A DNA stretch of 64,000 nt from Perna viridis. Its lineage: Eukaryota. Position numbers and translations under genes: made by a program. The notes beneath the pieces are model-generated. The model did not search any database. It worked only from the letters and a program-made list of their open reading frames with translations, and was not told the DNA's origin. Each line of letters starts with the position of its first letter. Positions within the stretch are counted from its first letter, which is position 1. Where the stretch lies: assembly GCA_037379345.1 (NCBI GenBank), contig CM074521.1, positions 19,554,704 to 19,618,703 of the forward strand, in the 5' to 3' direction. Positions 1 through 45,100 of the stretch are shown one piece after another.

Positions 1-140
1 ATAGGCCATAAATTATGTACCATATTGTCAGATATGTGTGGGTTTTTTTTCGGTATGATTCATTGTTTTTCAATTTTGCCTGATTCTTATGGATTCCAGT
101 ACTTAAGATAATTTAAATTTCATTTTTCTATCTTTTATAG

Positions 141-177
141 AACAGTACAGATAGTGGAACACCACCAGGAAGTCCTC
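141..177 (+). CDS. PRKAG: PRKAG N-terminal-region exon ([12 protein letters not shown]), ends phase 1
   Basis: Acceptor tttttctatcttttatag and donor CTC|gtaagt. The Ser/Pro-rich peptide joins 18648 in frame. No domain homology supports it. Confidence 0.7.
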
Positions 178-9100: not shown

Positions 9101-12100
9101 GGAAAAAAGTAGGAAAAAAACAATAAAAGAATTAAAGAAAGTAATTGGGAAAATTATGAAATTGCTCTGTTTATGCTGTACATTTTATGTGTGATGGAAT
9201 TGTAGACATAAACATTTTCTATTCTAAAATTTTGATTTGATAAATGAGGCGGACAGATGTTGGTTTTGAGACTAACAAAAAAAAAATTATATCAGAACTT
9301 TCTTGTTCTCAGTATGGTAAAAAGTAAAAAAGGTTCATATTTCCAGTTATTATTCCAGGAACAATAGTCCTAGAGCTGTTAAAATATATTGGTATGAGTG
9401 CTGTATTACTGCATGTAGACCCTCATTCAACAAAATACTTTGTGCTATATTTAGAAACATCAAAATCAATCCTTTGAATAGCCACATATAATTACAACAA
9501 TTTGCTGATAATGAGGCTTGCAGTAAACTTATTCAATGTTGACAATCAAGGAAAAGTGACATTTGGCTTCTTAAATGATCACATGATCAGCTTACAAATC
9601 TGCTGACCGAGAAATTGCCTGCTTAGTTCAAGGCCATTTAAAAACGTATTGATAACAAACTGGAGCATGTGCTCAGATGAAAACAACAACATTGTCAATT
9701 CTTGCAGTGCACATTTGCTGTTTTAAGGTTTTAATTAATTGCCTATTTGCCTTTTGAGGACAATCAGCTTGTGGAGGAATTGTGTCAGTCTATATTTTAT
9801 TGAATATTGACATATTTTTACATCTCTGGGAAATAGATTAGGTGGCTGGTTGAATCTGGACTTGTTTACAGTTTTCTATTAGTGTGCAGTGGAGTTCAAG
9901 TTTTCAAAATTTCACTAAAAATGAGCAAAAAGAGGAAGCTGAGCTTGAGGTTAAGGATAAGTAAGTACAATTAATTCTCAATTTCTGCAATTTTGTATGC
10001 GTGACATTTGACCTTTTTCCAATGTTTTTTATTTGTTCCAAAGTAGGTCATGTATGACAGTTATAGAAATTGAACTTCTTTGCAAAATTATCCATTTAAA
10101 TCAAAAATAGACTTAAAAATACTTATAAGCAAACGTGAGGAAGGAAATGTATATAATTGAGATTGGCTAGAGATCTTTGCATTAGAGATTATATCCCTGT
10201 ATTTTTGCACCATTTTGTTGAAGAATATTTTTTGATTGTATCTTTCTTTCCACTTAACTTTATGTAGTTAGTTTAAGGATAAGGTTTTAACTGTCCACTT
10301 ATCTGTACAAAAAAATTCAAAAAATCTGTACTCACAACTCATAAAATTTTCTAGCAATGTTATATGTGACCCTCACTAATTGAAATCTGGATTTTACCGT
10401 TACGATTCTTTTTTTTTACTGTTTATTTATTTCCGATTTTACCGATTTTCTCAATGTTTGACGACCTTGTAAAATCATCAATGTTTTATAATCTTTGCAG
10501 TCTGATTTTAATTACTGTAGATTTTGTGTAAATGGTACATGTGTCTATAATTATAGAGTTATTTCCCGTGATTTTTTATCAGTTTGTTTAGCTGTACCTA
10601 TTCTGGTCTTCAGATTTAACATTGTTACATCCCATCTTAAATACAGTTTTCAGCATGATATAGGTTTTTTTATAAAACTTTGTATGCAGTCTTTGTCTAA
10701 TTGCTAAAAGTTCTGAAACCATTTTCAATTTTATCAGAATCTTATGTTGTGTCATAAATTTTATCACAATCTAGAGATGTATGGCATTTGAATGTTGTTA
10801 CTAAACTTGTCGTAGATGTCCCTCAATGGTCTTATCATTCTAGGCCCTGTGAAGCATTTTGATTATACATGTGACCAACTTGCAGCTATTAGTTACTGTA
10901 AGTAACTAACAACATAACATCTTATATTTCCCAGTCAGAGGCCACAAGGAGCAAGCAGAGTACAATATCGAGACAAAGAACATGAATAGAAATATATAGC
11001 ACAAAGTGTAAAGTCTGACAAAGATGATGAATAGTAACAGTTACTGGCCTAGACAGTAACTGTCTGTGTCATAATTGTAGATTGACACAATGAAGTTGTA
11101 CATTTCAGGTGCGACCAGATATTGGCCAGTGTATACCTTTATGGGGTATATTTTGACTTGGAATCCCTCTTTAAAAATTTATCATAGTTTTGAGCCCTGG
11201 TGTATACATGGTATCTCTTGGATTACCTCTTTGGAAGTCTGTCATAGTATTGGGCCCTGGCGTATACATTGACATTTTATCTCATGAATTCTTTCTATAG
11301 AAATCTATCATAGTATTAGGCCCTGGCATGTACATTGTATCTCATGGATGCCCTCTATAGATATCTATCATAGTATTGGGCCCTGGGATATACATTGTAT
11401 CTCATGGATTCCCTCTATAGAAATCTGTCATAGTATTGGGCCCTGGCATGTACATTGTATCTCATGGATTCCCTCTAGAGAAATCTGTCATAGTATTGGG
11501 TCCTGGCATATACATTGTATCTCATGGATTCCCTCTAGAGAAATCTGTCATAGTATTGGACCCTGATCTCAAGTTAAGTTATGAAGTAAACATGTTATCC
11601 AAAAAAACATATGGTGATATTATCCACTGTTCTACAGTTATGTCATGTCCAAAACCACATGTTAATTGAGCAAAACATCATTATTTTTCAACCAATTATG
11701 ACGAAGGAACTTTTTTTAGTTGTCAAGTGATTTGAATTTTTATGTTTTCGTGTGTTTCATGATTTATGAGGGTAATTTAACTCGGGCTAACAAGACACCT
11801 TGTTTAGGTTGTTGGCCTCATTATAATACAAGAAGTAAACAAAGTATGATCTCAAAAAACATTGCGTTTGAACAGAATTACATCAGAGAAGAATTACGGT
11901 GACAAGAAAGACCAGGGGTTTTAGGACATTTTTATTTGAAAACCCTTAAAGGAACCTTGAGATTTGAAGATTTCAAATGTACATGGGGTCTAGACAAAAC
12001 ACAGGGTACACCACGTGACCAGAGGAACAAATACAAATTATAAATTGTACTTACAAAAGAACTATTAAAGAGTGAACCATATACAGAATGAATCCCTGTA

Positions 12101-18100: not shown

Positions 18101-21100
18101 TTTAAAGACCTAGAGTAATTTGTTAGTACTAACAAGGAACATGAATGACAATGTAATATTTTATCCCTACTGATTAGTGGGTGGTATATTGGAATTAACT
18201 TGTCTGTCAGTGGATCCATTCATCATTCTGTCTGTCAAAATTTTGTCACAATATCTCCATTCCCACTGGATGGGTCAATTTTCAATTTGGTAAGTGACTT
18301 AATAAAGATGGGGTATACTCTGTAAGCAATTTTAAGTTTGTGTCAAATGCCAATTTTCATTGCATATGTGGGTATACATTGCACATCAACAACTGCAGTC
18401 ACCAAAAAGATTTATGAAATTTTGGTATATTAGATTTTAGCAGCATCTACTGCTCTATTTTTGAAAGTAGTTAAATGAAAAGAAGTGTTAAAAGTAAAAC
18501 AACCCACAGAGGTTCTATTGGTACCCACAGGAGTATCATCTGAATTTATTGGCAGCAGTTTGTATTTACATTCATCAAACTGGACCTGGGGTTTCCACCT
18601 TCTATTGTAGCTGCAGGTTTCTTAAATAGTATTTTCTTCTTTTTCAGTATCACCGCTCAAGTCTTTAGGGAATAGTAATGAACCCAAGTCAGCACCACCG
18701 ATTCGGAACCATGAGCATACACATGCTATCATCTTCAAAAGAGATGATTCAGTGCGGGTTAGTGATGTACGTACTAAGCATGTGCCTGGTAACACTTTTA
18801 TTTTACTTACAACGCTCTAAAGTTATTCATGAACATTCACAGTTGATGACATTAGATTTTGTGTTGCATCAACAAGTAAATGGTATTATACTCCACATAA
18901 GTCTTTAGAAAATAATTTTGGGAACTTTGAAAAGTTCATGATTAACTTGGCTGCATTGTAGTTTTGGATTGTAGTTGCACTTTATGTTCTGGTTTATGTG
19001 CTTGTATTTCATATATTCAGAGTTAGTGACTTTGTTTAAGGCTGAATTTTTTTATACTCTTTCCCAGGGTTTGTAATTATTGTAAAAGTTTTTCACATAG
19101 CTTAATTAGAGACAACTTTTTAAAATCCAGGAGCCTTTTAAACAATTGCAAATGCGGCTGTATATTGGTACAGCGCCGTCATTGTCGTCTGTAGACACTT
19201 CATTTTTGTGTGGTAACTTGAGTATTGGTTTGTTGATCTTTATAAAATTTTATAACAAGGTTCCAAACCTTGAAATAAAGATTTGGTATTGATTTTTTTA
19301 GAATTAGGGGCCAAAAGGGGACCTAAAACATGCATTTCATTGAGTTTAACTATAAAACTCCAAGAAAAGCATTGTAATGTCTAGGATATTGTTCCACAAT
19401 GAACAGACTTGGATTGATTTTGGAACTTTCCAGAAATTAGGGGCCATGAAGGGGGACAGAAACATGCATTTTCCTGATGCAGGGATCAAGATAATAACTA
19501 ACAGTGAATGAATCTTTTTGAAATTGCATTACAAGGTGCCATACCACAAAAAGAAGACTAAGATTGATTTTTGGGGTTTTGACTTGAGCCAAGTCAGAAT
19601 AAGGGGTCATATTAGGAACCAGAAACATGTATTTTTTTTCTGATTTCTTGACAAAATCTTTTTGGTCTGATTTTGAAAATTTATAAGGTTCCTCTTGAAA
19701 ATCCTTACTGGTGTTTTTCAATCAGATTGGAGATATCTTTCATAGTTTTTGTATGTAATGGGGCCAAACGGGGCCACATCCCAAATAATAAGACTTTTAT
19801 TTTTGTGGCAATTTTTTAAAAATTTCTTTTTTCATTAGATTCCATATGATATTCCAAGTTTAGGTACAAGAGTTTTATAAGAAGTATGCTTACCAAATTA
19901 ACCCTATTATTGACTGTTTTTGAGATAATGAGGTACAAAGTGATCCATGAATGCATCCTGAAACAGACCTTTATACTTAGATTGAATTTCAAAGTATTGT
20001 GCAATATTGTGCCAAAGTGAGTTGTTGTGTCCGTATTGAACTGTAAGTCCCTATGTTTAGTGTGTTAAAAACTAATATTGTGCCTCCACGCTTGCCTTAA
20101 GTAAACAGAGTTCAACTGGCAGCAGTGATATCATGCTGCACTTTATGAAACTTTTAATTGGAGTAAGATGTACACAATTAAGACTAAATCCATGTCAAAG
20201 TTCAAGGCCTACAAAGATGGGTTCTTATAAATGGTTTCCATCTTTCATATCACAATGCATCATGTGGACATTTATTTTGTTTAATGTGCGAATTTAAAAT
20301 ATACCAACACAGGCCTAAAAACAAGTATGTGTTTCTGGTAACACCCTTTTCAAAATTAGGGTCGGTAGGTAGGTTTTTTTTTTCTCTCGATGCTACAAAC
20401 ATTTCAGTAGGATTTTAGCATCCAAGTGCTGACATTTCGCAGTTTTGATTGCAAATACTGAACTCGCTTTGGCGTTCGCCATAGCATTCTTACTGTGATA
20501 ATGGGTCTCCACACTGGGGAGCAATTTAAATACAATAAAATGCAAATCGGCGACAGAAAACACCAAAATTTAGGATTTTTTAATTTTTTTTTTGCCGACG
20601 CAATAAAAAAGTTAGGGTCGGTTGGGTTACTGGAAACACATTTTTTTTTAGGCCACATAGTATTATTTAAGTTTAATTAAAAACCAACTTATTGTGCATC
20701 CTACTTTTCTCCTAAGTAATAGTTACCCATTGGTTGTGATGATTTTTCATGAGCCTTTACTTAGTTCTACTTATCAGTAGTATTCCCAATCAGTGGTTCC
20801 CCATTGCAAAAATTATGTTTCAGTAACCTTCAGTAAGCTCTCCCATTCAAAGAACTATAGATTAAGATGAGGTTTCAGGAGCCTCCACCATGTTCGCCCA
20901 ATTATTGGTTTTCTAAGGGCAAAACTGGTGCTTCACTCTCCTGCACTAAGCTTTCCCAACAAACCCCAGAACCGAGGATTAAGATGATGTTTCATGACCC
21001 TTTACCATGTTCTCTCAACCTGAATAGTTCCCCATTGACAAAACTGATGTTTCCATAACCTTCACGAAGTTCTTCATTTCAAACCAAACCCCAGAATCAT

Positions 21101-24100: not shown

Positions 24101-27100
24101 AAACAAGGTCTTTTGCAGGACTTTTTATTCAAGAGTGTTTAAGTCTGCCAGTTTTGAAAGGATTATTGAATGATGAGCTAAAAACTCCAGAACATTTGAA
24201 TTCTCATTCTCATGCCTTTTTCTTGGGTGAAATGGAGTTGAAATATTTTTTCATTTCCACTGATTTATTTTGGGGTCAAATAGGAAATTACGATGATAAC
24301 TTGTACATGCACAAATGAGGCTAGGTATCCATTCCATATACCCATTTTATAGTTTACAAAATGCCCTTATTTTATTTGTTCAGGAATAACTACCCTGGAT
24401 TACTGTAAATGTTTTTACTTTTGTGATGGACAGATTACTGCGAAAAAGTAGTATGTGCAAAATTAATCTTTAACGCATATTGCTTTTCTCCTTTTTTTTA
24501 ACCACAAATATTAGCAATAACAAAAATTAATATGTTTACAGAGTTATTTTCTGGTCCATTTCTTTTCCAACATTGTTTAAATCATTCATAAATAATATAA
24601 TTGAATGTGTCTACAACCTGTTACTTCCTGTATCAGGGGTGTCAATGTATAAATCCTATTGACCATACAATCGTTTAAGATGCTTCAATTCTGTTTTCTG
24701 TCTTTTTCAGTTTTCGCTGGAATCTGATATAGACAAATTAGATATAGAAGATTTAGGTAAGTTTGATCAATGTACTAGTTGAAAGTCTTATCTTTTAAGG
24801 GTTTACTCTTGTGGTGTCACATAGAAATTTGTGTTCTTGACCTTTCCGACAACCCTTAACATGACTGTAGCCATGTAAAAATGTGAATTGAAAACAAATA
24901 CTCGACTGTTTAAAATCTGCTTAGAGGTTTTACAGTGGACTTAAAAGTTTCTTGCCCTACTTAATGTATTAGGTCATGTCTGTAACCTTGTTTGAACTTA
25001 AAACTTCATTCCTTCTTAGCAAGTTCTAGGGGTTTTTCTTATTATACACTCCTTGAGACGTTCACGTTTCCTATTTTAGCGTTCATACATCATTTACCGT
25101 GCATTTACACATCGTTTTGCGTTCGTTTGATTATATAAATTAATTATAGCAAAAAATGTAAAAATAAGAAAAATCCCTAGAACTTGCTAAGGAGGAATTG
25201 ATTATTTCCTTGATTTAGCTGTTATTTTTATATTTTTTGCTATAATTAATTTATATAATTTCACTAATTTTATTTTCTATCATTTTCTGTCTTCATTATA
25301 TGTCAGTATTATTATTTTTCGTTGTTTGTCTATCGTGCGTTTAAACGCATGCTAGGAGGGTTCTTTCATCTTGCGTTTAAATGCACGTTGGAAGCATTCT
25401 TTATTGTGCATTTAAATGCATGATAAACGAACGCTCCTATCGTGCGTTTAAATGCACAATATAGAACGCTCCCAGCGTGCGTTGAAACCCACAAAAGATG
25501 AACGATGGGAAAATAATAATACTGACATAAGAATAGAAGCGTTCGTTTATCGTGCGTGCAGGAAACCTAAACATCTCACGGAATGTACCTGTTCACATTT
25601 GTATTTACTAGGGATTCTAAGTTGAATCAACATAAATGCATTAATGCATTTTTTTTTTTTTTTGATTGGCTGTAAGTAGTTTTGTGGTAAAATATAAACT
25701 TTTTCTATTCTGATGCAATGGAAGTACTTTTCTTCATGGGTTCAAGTAAAAATCTCCTAGATTCTAGTATACATTTAAACCTAAAAGTCCTTTAAAAATT
25801 ATCCTACGAGAATGGTCATGTTTTGGAGATAATTGAAAACATGTGACAATTTCAAGGTGAAAGAAAAGAAAGGACAATCGTGTTACAGGATGACATTGAA
25901 TAGGTGACACAGTTATATAATTCATATAGAGAAATGACAAGGTACAGACACTGAATATTACATGCCACAATCTGTATCTTATGCCATATCAACCATAGAC
26001 TGCTTTATCTCCCCATGGGTCACTGACTGAGAGGGGGATATGGGTCAATCAAGGGTTTGTATGAGTTACGAGTTACTGTAAAGTTTGTTAAGTCCAGGCT
26101 GCAGTACTACAAAATTTGAAAAAAATTACTTGAGTCTAAGAAAATTCATAACATCATTAATTTCAAAGATAAGAGTTACCATGGAAGTTAAGAACATTCT
26201 TAGAATGAAGAATTTTTTCGAGTTTTGTGGGGCTCGGAGCCAGGACTTAGGTAGATGAAATTTCAATGTTCATGCATCTGAGACCTCGGACCAACTCTAA
26301 TTTAAATCCCTGTAACAGTCCTTATTTTAGAAAATCTTCAAAATATGAGGATTTACCTACCTTATCTGTTAGGAACAGAAATTAGCACGAAAACAATTAT
26401 TTTTCGAATACTTTGTTTAAACTTCTTGTTTCTTTATCATTTTCAATAGGCTTGATAAAGTATTACTAAAAGAGTTGTTGGTCACAGAAAGTTTTGCATT
26501 CTTTGAACTTTGTTCTTTACATATAGATAAAAACTAAACTTCTGTATTCATTCAAAGGACTAGACATTTTTAAAATAAAAATTAGAGCTTATTAGCTTTT
26601 GGTAAAGACACCGGTAATTGTTTCATACAACATAATACATAAATGTTTTCGATCATGTTTCAAAGTCTTCCAGTTCTTTGATATGCTGCATCTGCATATA
26701 ACTGCATTGAAATTCTCATCTGTTCATGTCTACCTTATGAATTATCTGAGAACATGGACTTGTCTAACAACTGTCTAGAATAAAATGTTATTGAACTTGG
26801 TGACCACTTATAGATTCTTACTATCAAGAAACTTAAATATTTTTTGTTGACAATAGATCTGTGTCATATCTCAGTGGTCATAGGTTGACAATAGATATCT
26901 CATATCTCAGTGGTCATTGGTTAACAATTGATCTCTCATATCCCAGTGGTCATTTGTTGACAATAGATCTCTCATATCTCAGTGGTCATTGGTTGACAAT
27001 TGATCTCTCATATCTCAGTGGTCATTGGTTGACAGTAGATACCTCATATTCCAGTTCTCATTGGTTGACAATAGATCTCTCATATCTCAGTGGTCATTGG

Positions 27101-30100
27101 TTGACAGTAGATACCTCATATTCCAGTTGTCATAGGTTGACAATAGATCTCTCATATCTCAGTGGTCATTGGTTGACAATAGATCTCTCATATCCCAGTG
27201 GTCATTGGTTGACAATTGATCTCTCATATCTCAGTTGTCATTGGTTGACAATAGATCTCTCATATCTCAGTGGTCATTGGTTGACAATAGATCTCTCATA
27301 TCTCAATTGTCATTGGTTGACAAAAGATCTCTCATATCTCAGTGGTCATTGGTTGACAATTGATCTCTCATATTCCTGTGGTCATTGGTTGACAGTAGAT
27401 ATCTCATATCTCAGTGATCATTGGTTGACAATAGATCTGTCATATTATTGTTTGTTGGTTGACAGTAGATCTCTCATATTGCAGAAGTCTTTTGTTGACA
27501 ATAGATCTGTCATATTCCTGTGGTCAGAGGTAGAAAACAAAAAATTTGGGTAACCCAATGAACGTGATCTGTTCAGTGTTGTAGGATTTTTTTAGGTCAA
27601 CTTTCCAACGGAAAGTCATTACTCGAAATCTACTTTCCCAGTCAGTATAGTAACTTTCCCTGATATTTTTAAGGTTATTGCTTTTGTTTGTGTTTTGAAT
27701 ACAAATTAGTCATGTCCTTTTATCATGAGGTGAAGAAAACCATAGTTTAGATACATAATGGTATCTTTTTATTGCCCCTGGAAATGCCAGGCGTCCGTTC
27801 CGTCCACATTTTCCACACTTTTTTTATGCTTTTACCAAATAAGTTTGTATTTGGTATGTTGCCTTATTATGAAGAGTTACAGATTAAGTTTGACTTTGGT
27901 TATGGTTGAATGATTTTTGGCCCTTGGACTTTGAAAATTTCAGTGAATTAACAGTTTTCTGCATTTTTTTGTAATGCTTTTACCAATTGATTTTATATTT
28001 TGTATGTAGTCTTACTATGAGAAGTTACAGATTAAATTTGACTTTCGTTATGATTGAATGATTTTACAGAAGTTATGGCCCTTGGACTTAGAAAATTTCA
28101 GTGAATTTCAAAGTTTTCCTCATTTTTTTTTCTTTCGCGGGGGACATTGGACCGCTGTTCTTTTATTTTATTTAACATATGAACAAATTGAATTAACACT
28201 CAAAATTAACTTTTCTTCCGATTCATTTCAAATCATTTGAATTTTCCCACGAAATATACTTTAATAATAAAATACAAGTCATTTCCGGTACCGGCACCTT
28301 CATACCTGTCACTGATTTCAGAGTCTTAAAAATTTCTCATTAAGACCATTAATGCAACCTTTTTGATCATGAAATATATGTGAATCCAGGTTGTATTCCA
28401 TTTACAATTTCATATTATAATGATGGCTATTGTTAGACACTTTATTGCAAGCGCTAAAATAATGTAGACGAAAAAAGTCATGTTGTCGAATCGTGAGTAA
28501 AAACACACAAATTTGTTAGTGAACCTTTCTTAAAAAGGAATTTGGGATCTATTTGTGATAAATCAGAGTGATTTTATTCTAAAAAAATAAACTACAGGCA
28601 GATTTTACTTGCCCACAGACAGCTAACATCTACTTTTAAACTTTCCCAACCCTATGAAGCACTTTCCACAGGAAATGGTAATCCTAGAACACTGCTGTTT
28701 GATTTTGACTTACCCATTGTGACATTTGCTAGCTGCATGCCAGCAGGAGAGTGCTTTATAGAACTTCTAGTGGTAATAATTCTTGAGCTTTACATTGCTA
28801 TCTGTCTACCTTATAGAGTTTGTTACTTGGCCTTCATATACTCACTGTAGTCAGGGTCAAAGTTCATGTTGACATTGTATGTTGTAGATATAGGTCATGT
28901 ATCTTATCTTGGTCATAGTACAGGCATATACAACATTGTTCAATCGGGGTTACATGAAAGTTACTCAGGCCAAGTTAATCCAAATAATTCATGAGACTTG
29001 GTCCAGTTGTTGAAGTTGTGCAACTAGAATAACTTATCCATTGTGCAGTAGGGAAGAATTGAACATCAGGGACCTAAAAGACTTAGTCTGATATTTTAAT
29101 TGAATGCTAAGCAAAATGTCCATAACTTGATCTTTGGTTCAGTAACATCTCAAGCCACCTTTATTTGGCTGCATGAACTTCAGTGTCAATTTTGTGTCAG
29201 TAATAATATCTAAGGGCTGTAACTCTCGTGCTGTTTTGTAAAGGAGTTTTGATTTATGGTGCAATAGCTATTAAATAAACCAGTTTACATCACCTAAGGA
29301 CTATAACTCTACTTGAAGTCAATCATTTCTAGGGGTTCTTTTTTTGTGCCTGTATTCCCATGTCTACAGGAGAACTCAGGTCATTAGTTCAGTTTACAGT
29401 TTTATATACGATGGTCTCTTTGTCTATTATTACATTAGCCTTGGTTCTTAAAGTTGTATTTCAGGCATACCTTTAAATATTCATGTTTTTTACACCTGAC
29501 ACCAGTTTCGGTATTTTTTATGCAAAAAATAGAACTCGACATTTTCAATTTTTTTCACAAGTTTTATCTATAAAATCAAATGTATAAGTTTTGTAAATCA
29601 AATGTATATTTTGTATGGTAATGTTGCTAGAGCACACCTGACAAACTGGATTGATATGATCTATAGCAGTTTTATTATTGTCAGTTATATGAAAAATGTA
29701 CAGATCTTGATTTCCAGTGTATATTCATAGATTTAAGCTGATTTAAGATTCAACTTTCACCTTCCGAATACTGCTTTGAAATTTTTTTTGCATCTGCTTG
29801 AGATGTAAATTATATTGGCTTACTGATTTGAGCTTATGAATACTATTTATTTTGTAAGCCCAAAGGAGGAAAGCTTTTGTCCATCTGTAGTGACCCTAGT
29901 CTATAGATTCTACCTGTGATATTGTATCATTATGGAGGTGGAGAACTTTATTTTTTTGGTTCTATTTCACATTATTTCAGGAAACTTCAATCAGTATGTA
30001 ACTAGTAAAATCTTGCCGATTTTCTGTAATACAATTAAGCCTTTCAAAATGCAATTACTGGGTAATATGCCTTTGGCTTGATATTGTTCAGTCATTCAAT

Positions 30101-33100
30101 GTAAAGATATTTCATCTAATTTCAAGTCAATTTCATCAGAAATGCAGAAATTATGTCATAAGCAGTAAAAAATGTAATGCTATTATCATATAGTATTACA
30201 ATGTTTCCTAGTTTTGACAAGAATAGTACAGAGATTTGTCTTTTAAAAGTACATGTGACTGTATATGTTGTTTTAATTATTTTTGGGTTTTTTTTCAGAT
30301 GAAAACACAGAGCAGGCATTTGCAAAGTTTATGCGAGCTCACAAGTGCTATGATTTGATACCCACGAGTGCCAAACTTGTTATTTTTGACACATTATTAA
30401 ATGTAAGTACTTACAGATTTGAAAAGCATGTGTTAGAATAATATAATCAACAAGAAAACTCACAGCTGATATATAGATGTAGTTTCACAAGAAAATGGTA
30501 GACATTGATCATTGGTTTGAGATGGTGGTGCCATGGAGAAAGAAAGTATTGCATGGTCGAATAATCAGTGTTCTATGATTTTCAAAATTCTAGGTTTTCA
30601 CAGGCAAACTCTAAATATAGATTAACTTTCCTATACTTGAAGTTTGCTTGCCAAACTTATCAAATCATTTGAAAAATCCGAGCTTATTACTTGCCAAAGG
30701 GAAAGTTGGGCATAATATACAGCTCTCTTACACCAAAATTGCACTTTTTCTGAGTGATGGGAAAGTGAATTCCTAGAACACTGCATAAGTTGTAATTAAA
30801 GGCAAAATCTGAATTAGTGATGCCCAGTGAATGAAGTGTCTGTAAGTCAGTGTGTGTCATCTGATTGTCTAGGGTTCTGGGCTGCACTGAGAGTCCCAAA
30901 ACATTCATTTGTCTTTCTGTCTATGTGTCTGTCTTACAGCAGGTTTGCCAGAATTGAAGATTTTGTCCCATAAAGAATTAGGTCACATTAGCTGAAAGTA
31001 TTTGCTAGTTTTGACCAGATATGGAAACCCATTAATTTTTTTATGGTTGCTGATTTTCACAGGTTCTGTGAAGTGAACATGTATGCAGGCATCAATTTTC
31101 CCTATTTAAACTTAGCAAGTGCTACCTATTCGCCACAAAATGTGGAGCAGAGCAATATGTTGGCATTGACATATTTTCTTGTTTCATTTCAAGGTTTTGA
31201 TCTTAACTACTTATCAATGAAATTCAATAGCCCCTATCATGGTATGCTGTCATTTAACAAGTGTTATCTAAAGGGTAATATGTGCATTAGTATGCATTTA
31301 AATAATACTTGTGCACTGGCAGGCAAAAAATCTTCATTGAAAGAAATAATTAACCGATATTGTACCATTTAGATAGAGTTTATTGACAAATGTGGGTTAA
31401 AAGAGTCATAATTGTTGTAATAAAGTTAAAATCAATACACTTTATTGGTAAACTAATATTCTTGGATATTCATTTCTAAATGCTAATTAGGTGTTCTCAC
31501 AAAACTTTTTATTCTTTGTAAACTAAAAGTCTTCAGGAATTGTAGAATAGGTAATAGCAGTGTATTGTCTTTTTCCAGAAACCAATAGCTGAAGTGTTCT
31601 CAAAATATAACAAGAATAGTTATGGTGTATTTGTCAAAGAGACAACAAACCCACTGAGATAAGAATGTCAGCTCAAGTCTCTAAAGTTTGCTTGAAGAGG
31701 GGAGTTGTTTAATCACCCTTGTGACCTAAAGAAATGATCTACTCAATATTTACTTAAGTTAATTTGCTTATAAAATGTACAAGGTTCTACATGTTGAAAT
31801 TCTTAGTACTCCTGTTCTTAGCTGGAATCATGCATACCTGTTAACCCTCCCTATTTAGGAGGGAGACTCCCTCTTTTTGGGTCAATCTGCCCTCTTTTAA
31901 AAAGTCTCACATGTTGGACTCACAAGTCTCCCTCTTTCACAAATTTCTCCCCCAGATCTCTTTCTTAGTAGAAATATTGCACAAATTATGTTCTAAATGA
32001 TAGAAATGACGTAGGCTCATTGATGCCTCTTGATGATATCATATTTGTCCCAATGTTTCATATGATTTAAGCATACATGCTCAGGGATAAAAAGGTACCC
32101 ATCAAATATGTTTATAGATTTTCTAAATGTTGATGAGTTCCAAAAAAAAACCAAAAATAAAAAACACCATTTTTTTGCTGCTAACCTATCTCCAAATCCT
32201 GAACACGGACCTGTAAATTGTCTCTTTCTACTAGTGGTTTCTTGTAACAACATATCAGTTAATTAATGACTTCCATACTTCACCATGACTTGTTTTCCGA
32301 CAACTTTTAGCTCAAGTATCTTATTGTTTTGTTATCTTAAGTTAGATATCTCCTCAATATTGTTATGGGTGGTTGTGGTTTTGTAAATACTTCAGTCACT
32401 TGTTAACTCTCCTAAATGTCAAGGTTATTATCATTAATCTAAATACACTTTTTTCCCAGCAACTTACTACAAAATGTTGTATGGTATTTTGGAATGGCAC
32501 ATCTTCATAATATATGATATAAACAATGCTTTTAGGTATAAAATGCAATTAAAAGTGATACTATGGGATATGTGAACTTCAATCAAATTTTGAAACAGAA
32601 TTATCTATAGAGTGAAAATGAAGTAGTTCACATCATTCATTCCATTACAATATTTCAATCCACATTTTACTGTATGTTTTTCTTGCTGTATGGCACTGCT
32701 CCAAAATGCTGAAAAGGATAGAAATGCATAGATTAATTGTTCTTTCAATTGATACTTTTGTTTTTGGCAGCAGATTATGGCTTGGTTTACACGTTGAAAT
32801 CTCATCATGGTCTTGGCACTATTGTAAATATCTGTTACATTGAATGATTTATCAATCTTTAGGTCTCATGGTTTTCTTGTTTATTTTATGTAGTCAGAAA
32901 CATACAACAATGAAGTTGCTTGATATCTGATGAAGTCGGTTTGAAATGAGGAAAACACTATCCTGAGAATTTGAAAATGTTGTAGGTAACTTCAATGGAG
33001 AGTGAAAAAGACAGGTGGTCATTCTGTACTTGTGAATTTTTACATAGAATACACTACATAGGGATATTTTAATAACTTAGTCTTATTAAGAAAGGTTACG

Positions 33101-36100
33101 GTAGCTAAGACAGGTTTGATTCTACATTAACATAGTTTCATTTCATTATCATTATTGTGAATGAGACTGTAATAGACTTGGTTTAATTGGTTTAAATATG
33201 CCAGTACATAATATGGTAAATACAGATGTCAACTGATAATTACCCTGTACATAAGTACAGTACATAAGTACCAGTCCATACAGACACTGCCTATGGTGCA
33301 GAAAATCACATGGATCAGATGACCATGTGTTTTTGGTGTACATATGATATATTTTTATGTGACAATAGTCCTTTCTGTATTTAGATCTGTGGTTTTGAGA
33401 AAACTACACTTTAACCTCCCACTCAAATCAACCAAATCAAACCTTATCAAGAACAATAACTCTTGCGAAGTGCTAATTTCATGTACAGTTTATTTAAATT
33501 TTATCGCAAAGCACAACCCTCAAATGCAAAACCAATACTGAATATGCAATCTATAACAGTTTCTGAACAAGAAATAAAACTGAATCACCTGCTGCCTGAT
33601 TTTTAGAAAGACTGCTACTTAAAACCATATGGTTTGACCTCACTGTGTTAACTCAGAATGGTTAGGGATTTCAACGCAGGACTTATGGTTTTTCTTCACA
33701 ATAAACACTTGAGACTGTTAGGCTGGAGTTAACCAATAAGGTCTTAAAATGCACACTATTTCTTCAATAATACGTGTGACATTTTGATCACAACATTAAA
33801 AGAATTCTTGGCTGAAAAGATCCCATTTCGTTAAAACATATCCTGTATTTGTAACTTCTTTTCATGATGTTGTGTTTAAGACTTGTTTTGTTACGTAATG
33901 TAAGGCATCACTCATTACTGAATATTATTACCCTGGATTTATTCAGAGTAGAAAACTTAGAAACGATATTTTTGTCTCAATTTTTCAAATCTGAAGTGTA
34001 ATTTAATACAATTTGTTAAAGTCTGTATTGGTAACAGACACATGCAGACAAATGTTATGTTATAATTAGATCTTCGTGTATACAGGTCCATATTAATTCT
34101 GTCATACTGTCAAAACCACCTAGGTTTTCTTCCATTTATATTTTGAGTCTGCATGTTTACAGTAAAAAATGGTCAAATTAAAATTTTTAGGTCAATTTAT
34201 ATATGATCAATTAAGATATGAGTACTTTAGACTTTTGTTACTCATTATTCAATATACAGGACAACGATCTGATAGCAATTTAATTTTGTTGAGATCAATC
34301 TTGTTCCTTTTGAAGCTTTTCTCCAATAATTAATAGATACATAAAAGGAAACATTGATATGACCTTTGGGTTTTACCAGGAGTTTTTCCCTTCCTGAATT
34401 GGATTATTAGAATTGTTTTTAATGTAACTTGTGTTAAGATTGAATACTCCCAGATGTCTGAGATAATATGTGGTTTTGACCTTGTAATCCTTTTAAGGTT
34501 AATACAGTTTGTCATGTGTTATCAATCTGTTGGTTCTTCAAAGCTTATAGGTGAAGTTAATTCTAAAGTATCAATCTTTTTAAATATAAGAGAAGAGGTT
34601 ACATATAATGTCCAAAATCAACCAAAGTCTGCTTTCATTACTAAATGAAACAGTTACAGATCACATGACCAGTCTTAATTTGTCGTTCAGTTGTTGCACT
34701 TTTTAGACGATGTAGATTGTAAGATTTATATTGTTCTTTATTTGGTTGATTCAAGAAGGCCATTGGTTTTCTTGTAAATACACCCTATATACAGAAAAGA
34801 CTTCAGATACTTAAGTAGCAGAAACTCTGACACTGCCAATGGTAAAGTGATTGATGGTGTAGAAAAACCCTTCAAACAAACTACTATTTTAGTCTACATG
34901 TGTTTTACTTTCACAAAACAATAATCATTTCTGTATTCAGATCTTCACTTTTTAGAAAATTATACATTTATCTCCCACTAAAATCAACCAAGTGGGAGAT
35001 GAATGCATGGTTTTCTCAAAAATAAGATCAGAATACAGAAAGGACTACTGTGAAAGTACTAATGTTCATGGGGTACCAATTTTTGTGGTTTTTGTGGGTG
35101 AGACAGACCACGAAATTTAGTTCCCAAGGAAGAGCAGATTCCCATTGATATGCATACTGAAAACCTCAAAATCATGAATTCAAGAATCCATGTACTTGTG
35201 TATTTTCCCTAAGCCTCAAAATTAGTATCCACAAATTAAAGAACTTTTACGGTCTTGTAACCTTTAAATTGTAACATACGTATAGAACAAAAAATTATTG
35301 TTCGTTCAGTGGGTTTTTTCTACACCATGAATTACCTGTGTCTGAATTTTATATGGACTGGTACTTAAACTATTTGTATGTAAATCTGTCAAAGCATCAT
35401 TTGCTTGGTGGATTTCTCTGTAACATCTTATTATTGGCAGTGTCTTAACCTTATATGGATTGGTACTTAAGCACTATCAGATTCCAAATGTCTTTCAAAC
35501 AGTCGAACAGTTTTTCAATTTCCTTGTACTTGTGTAAATTTATATTCAGTGAACTATTTCAGTTAGATTAGCATGTACATGCTGAGCTATTTAGCTAACA
35601 GATATTAAGCTGAGTATATTTTACTTCCTGTTTATGTTAATTATTTGCGTACAAGGTGCCATGACAACAGTATTTTTCTCAGCAGTCTACAAAATCAGGG
35701 TTGCATCATGAGCTGGAAGTCCATAACAATCTAGCTAAATTAGATGGAATTATTCCATTACGTGGTCCAAAATTTCCTTGTTCTTTTCTGGTTAATATTA
35801 TATTTAATGCATACAGCTGTGGATATATCCACTGACTTTAAAGTACTTACTTACATAGTGCTTTAGCCCTTTGTTATCTTAAACTGCTTGAGGAGATCTT
35901 TTACTAAAATATAATACATGAATGAAATATTAAGGAACATTAGTCTCTTGAATCTAGATAAGTTTCCTAAAGGGACAGATTTGCCATTTTTGCACAGAGT
36001 TTTACCTAGCTGTACTGCTGTGCCTACTCAACTGATGTTGAAATATCTTGGCGACTTTTACCATATATAAGTTTATGTCTGGGAGGAATATTTTTACAGT

Positions 36101-39100
36101 AAGTTTCATAGAGAAAAGCTTGTACAGTACTTTAAAGTTTACTTGCCCTTATTAATGAGTGCTTCGGTTGCAGAGTACCTGCATAAATGACAATGAAATG
36201 TTCAATATTTGAATTATAAAAAAAAACTGACTTTGGAATCTTCAACATATCGTATGTGTAGTCCATGAACTGATCCATGCAACCATTTGACAGATTGATT
36301 GCTGACAGATCAATAACCGATGATAGTGACCAATCTGATCACAGTTTTCTTATGTAAAATGGCGGAAGATCTGTTAAAAATAAAGGATATGTAAAATGAA
36401 AGTATTAATTGATGTTTAAATCTACTGCATCATGTTAATATGTGTAAAACTGACAAATAAAATAATGGAATCTGTAAAATATATTGACAGCTCTGTGGTC
36501 ATGTGATGCGATCACCGGTTTTTATAGATTGGTTTGACGGATCAATGACTGATCTGAAATTGATCGATGACTGAACGGCTGACTGATTGCAAGTTTTGTT
36601 GTACGGACAAGTTCAGTTACTTTATTTTGTACTTTGTTAGATATTCTCAATGTTTATTAAATGTAAATGTATAATCAGATTTAAATGTAGTGAAAATAAG
36701 AAAAAAAAGGATCATCTTGTGAATCTGATATATAGATGCAGGAAATGCAATTCTTTTGGTTCAAAAATGAAAATTGTGTCATATTATGCTAAGACCAGCA
36801 TCATTAGTTCTTTGTGAAAGACATATCACCATCTTGTGCATTAAAAGCCCTAAAAAAATGAGACACCTTTGAAAATTGTTTTTTGGCTTGAATAAAAACT
36901 TACAGGTTGTTGTAGGTTTGTAATCACTGAAAAGTGGGCTACTGTTATAATGCATACAATGAGGATGATCAGGGAATAGACAATCACCTTTTGACCTTCC
37001 TTTGGAAGTTAACTGGATGATCCAGAAAATTTAAATATCTTTCTCACTTGTCAAGTTACAAATACCTGGTAGTGCACTACCTTAAGAAGATAATTATAGG
37101 TGATTGTTATTAAATCAGTGGAAGACTAAATCTACAGTATCTCATGTACATCATCATTTTATGCACTGTAACCAAACAAAAAGTCCTTCAGCTGTCAACA
37201 TGCTGTCTACATATTATTTATTTGGTCTCATTAATTCTAATGATGACATTGTGAATCAGTTACTGTGTCTTGATGAAACTTCACATGGTCTTAAAAATAG
37301 ACATTTTCTTTGTACTGATAAAGTATTGTACTTTTACTAGAAATCTTATATATGCTGCATTCTGATGACTTCATGATTGCTGTTCAACAGCTATGTCTTT
37401 ATTTAGAATGTCGTTTACACATCAAAGGCCTGTTAGTAGTTTGTATTGGTTGTGAAATCTTCTGTGAAAGTTAAATAGCATTGCATTGATATTTAACATT
37501 GAATTAATTCAGTATTTACTGAAATTGGCCTTGGAGTTTAAAGTATTTGTTTCATGGGTAGAAACCAGAGCTCATTGATTGTAATTCAGGGTTTGGGTTA
37601 AGCTGTACTAATTGGAATTAATTGTGTTCATGATTTTTGTATGGTAAACTGGCTGTTTCAGTTATTCCAAGGTTTGAGATTTTTTTTCGTCCTGTATTGC
37701 CAAGCATTGATTTAAAAGGGTGCTCTAAAGGTGTCATGACATAGGCCACGTGCTGGAGGGAACACAAACTCTTCATTGTATTGAAAATAATGATGAGTTT
37801 TCTCCATTTACAGTAAATAATGAACTTTGACCTTGAAGTTGTGAATGGTTCTTTGTAACATCAACCTATTGTTGTCTTGTAATTTACTTTGGTGCTTAAA
37901 TTTATCATAATTGGAATATTATTTATTAAAAAAACACATTTAGGATTAATTTTTAAATGTTCTTTTGACAAAAAGATTGATGTCTTTTTGGTCTTCTTAG
38001 CATTTATCTAGAAGTAAACCTGTCTTTAGTGACCCTTCAAGTGAAAGCGAAATTATGGCAAGATAAAACAAGTGGTCTTAATATACAGGTTGATTTTACA
38101 TAGAATAGCTGAAGAAGGGATATTTTAACCATGGTTTTTTAAGCAGACGTGGATTCAGGAGGGGGATGCACCTCCTCCCATCCCACCCCCAAAAAAAATC
38201 ATTAAAAAAATTGGCATGAAATCTTAATTTATCAGTATTTAAGCATCCAAACAATTTTCTTGCCTTGCATTGTTCAACATTTAATTCTATTAATGCATCC
38301 ACTAACTGAAATCCTGGATCTGCCTCTGTTTCAAGACATCTACAGGTTATTGCTGAATACAGGTTGTTACTAAGACAATTTATTGCTGAATACAGGTGGT
38401 CGCTAAGGCAGGTTATTGCTGAATACAGATGGTCACTAAGCCAGGTTATGACTGAATACTGGTGGTCACTAAGCCAGGTTATAGCTGTATACAGGTGTTC
38501 ACTAAGACAGGTTATAGCTGAATACAGGTGTTCACTAAGACAGGCGATAGGTACCAGTATCGTATTGCATATCCCTGAGCGGGTGAACATCAAAACATGG
38601 ATGCTATTAAAATATAGTGCATTTTCTTTTTGCCTCTCTACAAACTAATGTTTTGTCTAAAGATATGAACAATGACTTATAAAATAGAGCAAACATCACT
38701 GTAAGATAAAGAACTTTTTTAAAAGAAAATCTAACATAATAACACAAAAATGCTCCACTGAAAAGGTTGGTTTGATGAGTGCAAAACGAAAGTGAAAGTA
38801 GGGAAAATGGCCGTTTATAGTTCAAGACTACTTTTCTGTCCGATCTTCTTGGACTCACCCTATTTTCTTTGCGGGAAATTATTTTTTCACATGTCCTTAG
38901 AAATGCTACATAAGTGAAAGTTTTATTGAATCAATTTACATATTTTTTTAAAAAATCCTAAAAATATACACTTCACTATAGAAGTCTATGGGAAAATTAA
39001 TACAATACTGAGACCTATAGCTGAGTAAAGGTGGTCACTAAAACAGGTTAGCTGAATACAGGTGGTTGCTAAGACAGGTTTGACTGTAGAAGAACTGTGC

Positions 39101-42100
39101 TTAAACAATCATATTATGCTACATGAGGGAATGAACAGCACCTGGTATTCCCTTTATTGATGTAGAATGGTTAATCAGATATTTGTTTGATGAAACTGTC
39201 CTCCAGGCTTTTCAGATCTAATGGAGAGTGAAATTTCCTTGTTTATCTGTTTACTAGAATCATCCTTGAATGGAACCAGACAATAACTAGGGGTCATATT
39301 AATTGGTACTGCTGACATAAAATCATTTTTACTTTTCAAGGAAGACATTACTTTTATATGAAATATCCTGACCAATATATCATGGCTGACATTTGCTTAT
39401 GATTCTTTTTGATAATTGAACTGCTGATGGAATTCCATTGTTACTTTGTCATATGAGAAGGACAAATATTTTGCTTTAATTAAATAGGCATTCTCTTTAC
39501 TGTATTTGATCATAACTTTAATATGCTTAAAAGAGAGAAATACAGTGGGGCAAAATGGTTCTATCAAAGAGTCATGACATCTACTGCCTAGAATTGACTG
39601 TTCCAGGGGTACATTCTCACTTTATCAACAAGTTAATTTGTCAGTGATTGCTAGGGCATTACAAGAAAGAAAATTCTTTTTACAGCTCAAGTCCTGGACA
39701 CAAAACCGTTCATGAGTTTAAGTCTCTTTCATGAGTAGAGCATAGCCAAACAAGTTCAGATGCTCAACACTTTTGACCTTGTCTTACACGGGTCATATCA
39801 ACTTGCATGAAGGAAGGACAAACTGTTGTTCAACTTGGCATTTCTCTCTCTGTACCATTCTTCTGATGAAACTGATTGTTAGGATATATAATTTAGCAGG
39901 ATGGAACAATTGCAGATTCAGTGGGTTTCAAGAATTGGATCCACCCTTTTCTTTGAAAATTCTTTTTTTTTCAATTCTGTGCAATATTGTGTATGAGCAA
40001 ATAATATCCTGGTACTCCCCTTATATAATTTTTGAAATCTGCCCTTGGAAAATGGATGTGCCCATTGTTACACAAAGGGAAGTTTGTAGTCAAAAGCAGA
40101 ATTCATATCCAGTGGATTGTTACTACTACTAAGACATGCAAGTCCTTTAAGATGTAAATCATGGTTATGTTCTCAGTGGTAACAGCAGTGTCACCATCAG
40201 GTCATTAAACTACTTCATACAGTACAACTGCTTGACAGATTTCCTATTTGAACATCTACCGCTTAATCATTATCCTATTATCATATAGTGTAACCTTAAG
40301 TGAACATACTTTGAACTATTGGCCATGATGGTGATTAAAATGATTAGTAAATTTGGCATTGTAAAAGTTCTGTTTCAGTTCTTGGGTTTGTAGTTGGTTT
40401 TTGTTCCTTTTGGTTCAAATAAACTTTCAAGAGTGAAGTTTTGGATGCTATTGAATCTTTAATGAAAGGCCCACAAGAAGAAAGTGGAAGGTCCTCAATA
40501 AAAAGTATGGTAGGTCCAGGATCTACGTAGATGAAATTTCAGTGGTCCAGTATCAAATAAAGGGGCCTGGACCTGGGAATAGCACTTATTTAATCTGCAT
40601 AGTTTCATAAGACTTCCATATAAACTCAGAGATGAAAGTCTTGCCATTCTTTAGTGAATTTAGTGTAAAGGTTCATATTTATCCATATAACTGATATATA
40701 TTTTTTTTGAAAACATTAAATGAATTTTTAGTCAAAATTCTTGATGAAATATAAATGTTTTATTATGATAGGTAAGGTTATAGGTTATATGGTGGCTGAT
40801 GTAACTCAGAGGTCACTAATATATCTATATGGTGGCTGATGTAACTCAGAGGTCACTAATTTACACCTTGAGTAATTGATCCTTTTGTTAGTGTTTAACT
40901 GTAAATAAAGTGTTCAATTTAGATCATGTGTAGAATGAATGATTCATCACATAATACATCTGTCACATTAACAATACTGGGGACTGATTTAAAAAATGTG
41001 TCGGAAATGTGGTTCAGAAATTGTCCTAAGCTGTGGTCTGTTTCATATAAATCATCAAACCATAAAAAGGAAGATGGTCCCATGTTGATATTTGTCAAAG
41101 AATTATTTAGGATATTAAATATAATTCATGTAAATTAGATGTTTTTGGAATATTTATTTTACTCAGTTCTTAGATGTGCGTTTGAATGTATCATACATTT
41201 GTAGCTAGGTTTTCCTGTAGGAAAAAAACTTTTATCATAATAGATAATTTTAGAAAAGACAGAGTAGTTGTCTAGAATTATTTTGGAATATAACACTTTT
41301 CTGCCTGTTTTCTTAGTTAAATGATAGTTGTAAATGCATTTAACATTTCCCTACAGTGATTCTAAAAGCCTTGCAAGTCAACAAATTTGAAAATAGACAT
41401 AACTTTCCATATCTTTTTTACAGGTGAAGAAAGCATTTTTTGCCCTTGTATATAATGGTGTACGGGCAGCACCCCTCTGGGATAATTCTAAACAAGACTA
41501 TGTAGGTAAGTACATGTCCTATACTGAAAATTAACAAAATTACCTATCCATTATCAAGTCAAGTCCAAAATAAATCTGACAAAATAGATATGACACCACC
41601 AGAACAGCTGGTACCTCAATGATTCTGACTCTTCCATTGCGGTGTGAATATACTGGTGGTGATTTAATAGTTTTTGGATGCTATAGTGTGAAGAGGTACA
41701 ATTCTTACCTCCTGAACTCTTGATGTTTTCTTGATGTTTATACCCAGGCAACCAATTGATTTCTTCTTTGTTTAGGTAAGATTATATCTGTATTTGTGAC
41801 ATGTCTATTAGTTATCTTTTTATCATTCCAACTCCTCTCAAACTACTAGATAGAATTTCAAGACATTTGTTGGTCATGTAAAGAAATAAAATGTTTTTGT
41901 GCTTATTACTAAGACTTTTTTTATCCCTGAAATTTTGTGGGAGTTAAGGCCCTTTGAACTTACTTTTTTTAATGCACTACTTAAACATCTTTTCAATGAA
42001 ACCCTTCTAATGATAAAGTCAAAGGTGTTCAAATTGTGAAATTTGCACATTCAATTTATGAAAATGTCTACCTTTAAACTTGATAGCTCCTCCAATGTGG

Positions 42101-45100
42101 AGGGACATAGGTATGTGAGCATCCTCCCTAAGTTCTTTTACTTCTTAAGTGTTTTGTCTCAAATTAAAACTTAGGGCGAATAGAGTCTGTCTGTTTGTCT
42201 ACACATTAATTTTCTGTTGGGTGGAACCCTGTTGTGTGGTGATCACACCACTGTAGATTCTCTGTGTACATGTGCAGTTAATGCTGTCTCCATAATGATT
42301 ATGTTAGTATAAATAACAATTTAAACTTGTAACGTGTGGGAATGCACCATTACCAAATTTCAAGGACATTTGTAACTCTGGAAGGACAAGAAAAGCGCTG
42401 TTTTCTTGGAGAGAAAAAAATAAAAACTCTGATTGCACAATGTTCTACGTCAGTGCAGGAAAAAAAATACACTGTTTTCTTGAGAAAAAACATTCTAAAA
42501 AATTAGCAACATTTGAACATCATTGGTGGAAACAAATTCTACTTTGTCATTGGAGCAGTTAGGTTAATCGATTTATAAAACAAAACATGTAGCAGTTACA
42601 AGTATAACACCACATTTTATGGACCTCCTCTTTTTAAGTGGTACTCCAGCTAAGAATCATGCAAAATGTGATTCATGGGTAAAAAACCTACATATTTTTA
42701 TTTTTGATATTTTTTTTGAAATGTCATAGTAAACAGAAATAAATGTGGTTTTTCATACAACCCATGCTCTTAGGAGATAAAAATTACATACAATGCACTG
42801 TATAGTTCAAAATTAAGGGAGATAACTCTGTAAATGACGCTCAAATATTATAGAATCTTCTGTATTTTCAATGTCGACTATCTCCTAAGAGCAGGCAGAT
42901 TTGAATGAATAATTACACATTTCATAGTAAAGACCCAAAAAACAACTTAATTACAAAAATAAAAATATGCAGCCTTTTTGGGGGTGTATCATATTTTTCA
43001 GATTTTGCATGATTCTTACAAAGACAGCTACTTAAATTCAAGGAAACATGTTATATCAGTGTTTGTGAAATGTAAAAATTGAGTTTATGCAGAGGTTTCA
43101 ATTTTTAAATTGCATTATGTTAAAGAAGTTATATAATTTGACCTTTGAACTTTTGATGTAGATAGAACATTGTTGGCAATATAACCATGGTTAGATATGT
43201 CAGGCTAGCTAGTGCTTATTTTATGATAATGTAATTGTCATTTTGGAAGAGTAAGATATTGATAAGTTCGTAATTTTGCCGTTGTATAATGTTTAAAATT
43301 GTCTGACATGTTACATAGCTTTTGACAAAATCTAAAAACAAGTTATTAAAAGGGTTTTGGGATGAGGACAAGAGGAAGTGAGTTATATTACTTAAGACCA
43401 GGTATAAGCTGATGAGTAAGGTTACTTCAGTGATTCAAAAGCAGCCTTAGGTAGTACACCAAAGATTTATGGTGCTGGGAGGAGTTGAAACAATATTACC
43501 CAATAATAAGACTAGTCTTCAATTTTAGACTTTGGGAGTCTCACAGATGCTATGGAAGTTATCATTACAAATAAGTACATTGCCTTTAAACCAGTAGATA
43601 CAGTAGGATACTGAAAACAGACCATAGATCTTATAGCAGGGATTCAAATTAGCCAAGGTCCAGGGCCATCAATTTTGACTTAAGACCTTTCAAGCATATT
43701 TGTTGTTGACACTTTATTGAGGACTTTTATTCCTTTTTGATGATCATTGACTGGATACTTGAATCACTCTTCATTGTAAATTTGGACCTCAGATTGAGTT
43801 GGTCCTTTGATTGTAGTAACTTCAGAACAATTGTTTATCATCTAAAAGAAGTCTGCTGTTAATAGATAGTATCAGTTTATAATCATGTTTCTGATTCCAA
43901 CTGAAATGTTTCTAGATCAGATGATAAATTGATAATATGTCATATTTTCCTTGTTATTGGGGCAGAGTCATGTAGCCACAAATAAATAATGCAGCAAATA
44001 TATAGATTGTCTTCCTGGGTTCATCATAAGGTCTTTGATGGTTTCCTACTTCATAATGCTTCACATTTAAAGTACTGCTTAAAATGTTTTCTCAATAAAA
44101 AGAACATTTTACATGTACTTGTAAAAATATTTATCAAGCACCTAACATCAGTATTTTATAATGGGTTTTTGTAATTTGATTAGCATGAGCTGAAATATAG
44201 AGAGGCTTACCTGAAGTCATGAAAGAAAATTTAATTATTAATTTTGTACCCTAACAAGCTGAATTAATTTAGGAAATGCAATACACCGTGTCTAGAAAAT
44301 TAGTACTGACAAAGTAAATATCTTTCTGTTACAACTCAACACTGATACTGGTTTTCTGTTGTTTGTTTTGTGTAAATCTGTTGTTTCTTTCCTCAACAAT
44401 TTACAGCGGAGACAGTGGTGATGTTCAGGGAAACTGTTGGTCTATATAATTGTTTAAATGACACTCACCTGATGAACTTTGTTAGGTATTAGTTAATTAT
44501 ACAATAGAGGAAAGTTATTCTATAGATATTTGAATCAAAATACATGAGAAAAAGTTTAATTCCCCTGTTCAGTTGTGCACCTAAATTTATCAAGTCATTT
44601 AATTGAGGGAAGACCAACTGTGAAGTTACCTATTCTACTTGCTAAAAATTAAATTAATTACTTATTTTAATAAAGTGTCATGCATGCAAAAAAAAATATC
44701 TTTTTATAGATCTGGTTATCCATCTACTTTCTGTTTTCAAACTTCTAACATTGCTTACAGATAGTAGGGATATCTTCTATATATTTTAAACATGACTGAT
44801 TTTATTTGTTGGTAAGGCGATATTTTTGTCAATTTTCATTGGAGATAAACCTACACCTTTCTAAAAGCTGCAAAATATAATCACTCATGCCAAGAATACC
44901 GGAAGATTTGACACAGCATTGATAAAATTCTGCAAACTCATTAAATCTTAACATTCTTTACTACATGTTATCATAAGTTGTGTTAATTTTGACAAGATTG
45001 TCTAGTAAAGTATGGAGTCGCTGTTAGCCAGTCATTTATAACACTTCTTCTTGTAGTCCTTCAGGTTTGCTTGGCCAGTACTGAAATTATGAATGTCATT

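Follow-up and report, generated by a model that had tools for sequence, protein, structure and literature searches.

An alternative exon of the Perna viridis AMPK-gamma gene encodes a conserved 13-residue N-terminus that may combine a MAPK docking motif with a nuclear localization signal

An exon ending at position 9960 of the window (the whole stretch of 64,000 nucleotides analysed, G000:C11:19554704-19618703 in a 723-Mb genome of Perna viridis) is spliced onto the AMPK-gamma gene. This exon is real and probably serves as an alternative first exon; its leader measures at least 250-310 nt, and its short coding part gives the protein an N-terminal peptide of 13 residues. Comparison of homologous records indicates that this short motif is under strong purifying selection. 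The peptide could be a p38/ERK-type MAPK docking motif with an overlapping nuclear localization signal (NLS) and thus have a dual role, a reading held tentatively, at not quite an even chance, and drawn from sequence patterns alone. The initial annotation of this DNA had proposed an internal promoter and a first exon with an NLS-like N-terminus; that NLS is probably half of the story.

The window holds the 3' part of the AMPK-gamma gene on the + strand. The Pfam CBS domain PF00571 is found on the exon 51422-51598, and the nearest named proteins are Mytilus PRKAG isoforms, with 87-90% identity over the exon at 18648. Searched against the genome, one CBS exon matched once (matches are not copy numbers). 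A tblastn search of nine isoforms against 200 kb located three further first exons upstream, at about -149280, -82480 and -7610 relative to the window, as well as a large common exon at about -4263. As judged by homology, the gene extends over more than 200 kb and offers five or more candidate starts. Exons past 19500 were modelled by homology instead of reads. The features of the locus are as follows.

L016:717-806, L010:7516-7710 and L002:2387-2446 (upstream of the window): three alternative first exons, conserved with Mytilus
141..177, + strand: upstream exon of the long isoforms, with a donor competing for the acceptor at 18648 (joint 177>18648 in four of four runs; tblastn to Mytilus)
9610..9920, + strand: unspliced 5' leader of the likely first exon (contig ends; in-frame stop upstream of the ATG)
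9667..9726, + strand: uORF of 19 codons in the covered leader, its ATG included in three of the four contigs
9677..9757, + strand: uORF of 26 codons in the covered leader
9921..9960, + strand: coding part, the 13-residue peptide plus one base (phase 1)
9927..9959, + strand: predicted MAPK docking motif, in MKK6-type register from K3 and MEF2A-type register from R5
9927..9938, + strand: KKRK, a fit to the classical monopartite NLS consensus, invariant in nine of nine homolog records
9942..9944, + strand: Ser8, the S/T before the first hydrophobic anchor, a candidate phospho-switch
9961..9966, + strand: splice donor GTAAGT, used (joint 9960>18648 in four of four runs), in the top 1% of 3908 GT sites
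18648..18766, + strand: shared acceptor exon, beginning with a conserved SP-L-K/R site, with a possible internal donor at 18757
24711..60848, + strand: remaining AMPK-gamma exons with the four-CBS core (homology, tblastn, Pfam), namely 24711-24756, 30299-30402, 41424-41505, 46720-46778, 48775-48820, 51420-51598, 52058-52138, 52666-52788, 53834-53905, 58699-58779, 59673-59766 and a last exon from 60819

Splicing was followed in four studies, by aligning one run of each (four of the 24 runs listed) to positions 1-19500. These runs are classed as RNA by software guess only, none being on record as RNA, and the contigs made from them drop rare variants. A GT..AG joint 9960>18648, which skips 8687 nt, is present in all four runs, at depths of 9.2, 7.1, 10.7 and 5.5, and several unique intron bins are at zero depth. 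The joint 177>18648 of the long isoforms is its rival for the same acceptor in the same four runs. Use of the donor at 9960, on which the initial annotation had staked its proposal, is thus found in each study, and the local anatomy is as it had been described: an aaaaATG at 9921, 40 coding nucleotides, the 13-residue peptide and a GTAAGT at 9961-9966, in phase with the acceptor at 18648. The predicted length of 380 aa holds only with the internal donor at 18757, while with the donor at 18766, the end point of the listed contigs, the isoform has 383 aa. A joint into 16076, the other acceptor suggested, does not figure among the 15 of 31 joints listed. Runs X21-X24, under the same species label, contain next to none of the sequence words, which is no evidence of tissue specificity.

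The contigs over the exon run continuously to 9960 from 9610, 9632, 9660 and 9669, and cross unbroken both the acceptor at 9882 and the initiator (Inr) at 9785 that had been proposed. It is for this reason that the exon is likely an alternative first exon. That the contigs of four studies all stop at 9610-9669 is a weak hint of a 5' end, contigs being unable to prove a transcript start. The two uORFs of the leader overlap each other; they could lower the use of the ATG at 9921, which would amount to a possible translational control of the short isoform.

Among 252 proteins gathered by AMPK-gamma searches, 22 fit a pattern in which a short N-terminus precedes the shared acceptor exon, one of them, P0054, being matched falsely within a long isoform. 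The motif is carried by nine of the 22 records, from eight mollusc species, always on this acceptor exon. The 13 residues are identical in Azumapecten farreri, Patella vulgata (two records), P. caerulea and Elysia marginata (P0249, P0182, P0184, P0177 and P0247); 11 of 13 are kept in E. crispata, 9 of 13 in E. chlorotica and 8 of 13 in Dreissena polymorpha and Ruditapes philippinarum. Besides the identical form, four distinct variants were seen and no more. The columns K3, K4, R5, K6, L9 and L11 are invariant. In the two heterodont clams the basic and hydrophobic parts are set apart by one additional residue, with MKK6-type spacing kept, a variation that the greater-MEF2A docking class permits. 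Only 19-24 of the next 50 residues, in the adjoining linker, are identical. Bivalves and gastropods separated more than 500 million years ago. The purifying selection that this conservation indicates also supports translation from the ATG at 9921.

Databases already contain the isoform but attach no functional comment to it. Records with the same N-terminus and acceptor exon are XP_050418992.1 and XP_055959308.1 (Patella vulgata), KAK6166645.1 (P. caerulea), KAK3733761.1 (Elysia crispata), RUS91803.1 (E. chlorotica), P0247, P0248, P0249 and P0058, and their names mention only an AMPK gamma isoform or a hypothetical protein, with neither motif nor function. No such exon was observed in the listed members for Mytilus (15 of 72 in the cluster, all of at least 558 aa), oyster (15 of 16) or the Pecten group (15 of 23), nor in those for Gigantopelta, Pomacea, chiton, octopus, Lingula and Lineus. 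Since these clusters consist mostly of long isoforms, true absence from these taxa is not implied. A degenerate DNA pattern of the peptide had no match in metagenome contigs, and a protein-guided scan retained four loci from 78 candidates, three at 58% identity and one a single-exon match; residues 1-40 of P0249 gave no usable match in the ESM Atlas. Outside molluscs, the short gamma isoforms P0093 and P0107 of tubeworms begin with KRRMKLKL, which fits the greater-MEF2A and NFAT4-tight patterns.

The docking classes used here are those defined in PMC4670726 (Appendix Fig. S2), where the greater-MEF2A class reads [RK]-X(2-4)-[LIVMP]-X-[LIV]-X-[LIVMF] and comprises tight MEF2A and MKK6 spacings. 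The window peptide and all nine records fit both the MKK6-tight and the greater-MEF2A patterns, and the peptide and seven of the nine fit MEF2A-tight. The underlying arrangement, basic-x-x-L-x-L-x-I/F, is invariant throughout. Among the other first-exon peptides, from long isoforms (n=91), MEF2A-tight occurs in none, MKK6-tight in one, the greater class in seven and the NLS pattern in 11. Over 100,000 shuffles of the 13-mer, MEF2A-tight arises in 2.9%, the NLS pattern in 37.5% and both together in 1.3%. Zeke et al. caution that many of the hits from simple pattern matching are false, and they trace most docking motifs only to vertebrates (PMC4670726). The JNK-type NFAT4-tight pattern is also present in the window peptide and seven of nine records, so that the cognate kinase is not fixed. 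A complex prediction of a p38alpha-like stand-in (P0288, 118-467) with the scallop N-terminus (P0249, 1-32) scored 0.22 and 0.12 against a mark of 0.34; made without alignments and without folded controls, it was counted neither for nor against docking. The p38 exons in the genome (G000:C1) keep E160/D161/C162, D313 and D316, which we take to be the residues of the docking groove. The p38 locus also shows diverged second copies of three exons beside the main ones, resembling mutually exclusive exons (L025:343-423, L025:9373-9426 and L026:2164-2238).

The initial annotation had read KKRK as a classical NLS, and this fit stands: KKRK agrees with K-(K/R)-x-(K/R), the classical monopartite consensus (PMC8535671), in the window and in nine of nine records, with no exchange of K for R. 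Such exchanges do occur among the records at R10 and R12, and this difference suits a constraint from an NLS or from lysine modification better than one from docking. The peptide could therefore be an NLS only, giving a nucleus-directed gamma isoform in which the remaining residues are a flank or a phospho-switch for import; the N-terminal NLS of human gamma2 (bioRxiv 10.64898/2026.07.16.737177) is in keeping with this. However, the pattern is weakly specific, as the first-exon peptides and shuffles show, and L9, L11 and I/F13 would be left without a role. As a reading of the sequence, the NLS is incomplete: the equally conserved half S-L-[RK]-L-[RK]-[IF] stays unexplained, whereas the whole peptide fits a MAPK docking motif. 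An NLS acting by itself thus appears unlikely.

Conversely, the peptide may serve MAPK docking only, the basic run going to the acidic pocket of the kinase and having no function in import within the trimer. The docking consensus covers the whole peptide, in two registers, and AMPK alpha has an NLS and an NES of its own (PMC8535671). Nevertheless, docking patterns accept any R or K, and the strict KKRK exceeds this need, which leaves docking alone as a distinctly improbable reading.

Another partner is given the same low probability: a basophilic kinase for which the peptide would be a site or pseudosubstrate, a cyclin bound through RxL, or a membrane, nucleic acid or the AMPK trimer itself, contacted by a basic-hydrophobic patch. 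RKLS fits the common PKA-type pattern, RKLSL the cyclin RxL pattern, and the next exon begins with SPLK, a full CDK-type site. The PKA-type site noted at the outset is present in the window, and a Ser or Thr precedes the first Leu in nine of nine records, but the R/K-R/K-x-S/T context is kept in seven and absent from the two heterodont clams. Cyclin RxL ([RK]-x-L-x(0,1)-hydrophobic), found in the window and in only five of nine records, was rejected, as was PP1 RVxF, found in none. The docking pattern, in comparison, is present in all nine.

In the preferred reading, that of a docking motif with an overlapping NLS, an internal promoter would produce a short gamma subunit of about 383 aa. The KKRK of its N-terminal tail could bind importin-alpha; alternatively, the tail could lie in the groove of a MAPK, with the basic residues in the acidic pocket and L9, L11 and I13 in the hydrophobic pockets. 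As the same tail would bind one or the other, importin-alpha and the MAPK would compete. Once docked, a MAPK might phosphorylate S/T-P sites that lie further than 10 residues from the motif, either in gamma or on the alpha and beta subunits. Near the motif the isoform has one S/T-P site, S15, just two residues beyond it; its others, S148 and T257, belong to the CBS core. A distance of more than 10 residues is counted for target sites in PMC4670726, so S15 is too near, and distant targets are proposed for this reason. The motif occupies the very N-terminus, and some 70 residues separate it from the conserved core (YDLIP at 86). Phosphorylation of Ser8 might weaken binding. In the same way, PKA phosphorylation within the docking motif of PTP-SL blocks binding of ERK and p38 (PMC2168101). 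Promoter choice would then decide which pool of AMPK hears stress kinases and enters the nucleus.

The closest parallel is the long isoform of human gamma2 (PRKAG2/AAKG2), which likewise has an isoform-specific N-terminal peptide with a MEF2A-type motif and an S-L-R-x-x-I core. Residues 28-37 of human AAKG2 (KRRSLRVHIP) bind p38alpha and ERK2, and their loss lowers phosphorylation (PMC4670726). Human gamma2 also has a bipartite N-terminal NLS, controlled by acetylation, that binds importin alpha1 (bioRxiv 10.64898/2026.07.16.737177), and AMPK gamma isoforms from alternative promoters are known (PMC8535671). In human gamma2, however, the docking motif stands directly before DLSSFAMP and the NLS is a separate bipartite set of lysines, whereas the mollusc exon merges docking-type and NLS patterns within 11 residues. 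Furthermore, the mollusc counterpart of the DLSSFAMP segment is the exon at -4263, and the studied exon is joined some 190 residues beyond it. Of the 91 peptides preceding a DLSSFAMP-like segment in the retrieved proteins, none fits MEF2A-tight. This, together with the different exon position, makes independent origin likelier than shared descent, and the mollusc motif, as far as sequences tell, likely evolved independently of the vertebrate one. According to PMC4670726, the human motif is confined to bony vertebrates and may have been borrowed from MEF2. The segment DLS(S/A)FAMP itself is present in molluscs, Lingula and Lineus (L002:5737 onward; P0148, P0167, P0174, P0224, P0237), which conflicts with a note to a table in PMC4670726, according to which animals below jawed vertebrates lack the whole region.

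Two other systems offer points of comparison. The tight consensus of the greater MEF2A-class D-motifs (MEF2A and MKK6 types; Zeke et al. 2015) fits the mollusc peptide, which differs from known members in its unusually deep conservation, in having no usable S/T-P site nearby and in being known from sequence alone. In MK5/PRAK, a C-terminal NLS overlaps the p38 docking site (PMC3037495), and one basic stretch thus serves import and p38 docking, as is predicted for the mollusc peptide. MK5 is nevertheless a kinase with a C-terminal motif, while the mollusc motif would belong to an optional N-terminal exon on a regulatory subunit.

No literature was found on this mollusc isoform or motif, in a search that left most subscription journals outside, and an 11-residue string of the peptide was not found in a text search of the literature. 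In a paper on AMPK of Mytilus coruscus (PMC9777882), no passage concerns p38 or nuclear location. PMC4670726 presents the link between MAPKs and AMPK through gamma2 as a novelty of vertebrates centred on the heart, and considers docking motifs to evolve fast. A broader scenario, doubtful as it stands, is that molluscs and vertebrates independently wired stress MAPKs to AMPK through an optional N-terminal exon of gamma; the mollusc version would be an 11-residue switch, unchanged since the bivalve-gastropod split, at which importin and p38/ERK compete and where MAPK binding or Ser8 phosphorylation sets the location of AMPK. If this is true, a direct MAPK-AMPK link would be old in molluscs and would have arisen more than once, and 13 residues with one promoter would provide a short, testable handle on how intertidal animals might couple stress signalling with energy sensing. 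If the NLS half alone holds, molluscs would have a conserved nucleus-directed AMPK isoform.

While the exon is spliced and likely a first exon, the promoter elements named for it occur at chance level. The 12-mer at 9577..9588, GATCACATGATC, taken for a palindromic E-box, is palindromic at only 10 of its 12 positions; the window contains 109 12-mers of this kind, one per 587 nt, and the core TCACATGA was observed five times against 4.4 expected. This candidate was rejected on these counts. The Inr-like motif near 9785 was likewise rejected as more than chance, TCAGTC being present 16 times on the + strand and 14 times on the - strand of the window. Because all four contigs reach upstream of 9785, this Inr is not the only or main start.

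That the segment is mainly a 78-nt cassette exon inside long isoforms is very improbable: the stretch 9883-9960 is open and in frame, as had been noted, and Mytilus records carry other short inserts at the same position, but no joint into 9883 figures among the 15 of 31 listed, the contigs are unbroken across the site in four of four runs, all nine homolog records begin at the motif or just before it, and the acceptor is weak (a score of 0.4 against 10.4-18.1 for the gene's 14 acceptors, on a matrix trained on those same 14 and hence biased; 13% of the 3437 AGs in the window score as high).

The locus shows further exon variation. A second conserved internal exon lies in the same intron at 786-873, with an ATG at 816 and a phase-1 donor at 873. 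It has about 90% identity over 29 residues to an insert in Mytilus P0004/P0016 and would give a 389-aa isoform with another basic N-terminus; its cover is zero in the four runs, which is no proof of silence. Downstream, a 30-nt cassette exon at 22188-22217 matches Mytilus inserts; together with the two possible donors 18757/18766, 9 nt apart, it could tune the linker that precedes the CBS core. The last part of the large common exon recurs in tandem just downstream (L002:5737-6378, about -4263 to -3620 relative to the window), so that about 30 codons of a QRHTSGN...KSPRKML stretch are present twice. Finally, a very abundant repeat has two copies in the window, at 3570-3740 and 17650-17850, and dominates contig depth in all four runs, and tandem-repeat-like intron stretches at 11288-11669, 26837-27553 and 38096-38648 give rise to long spurious ORFs.
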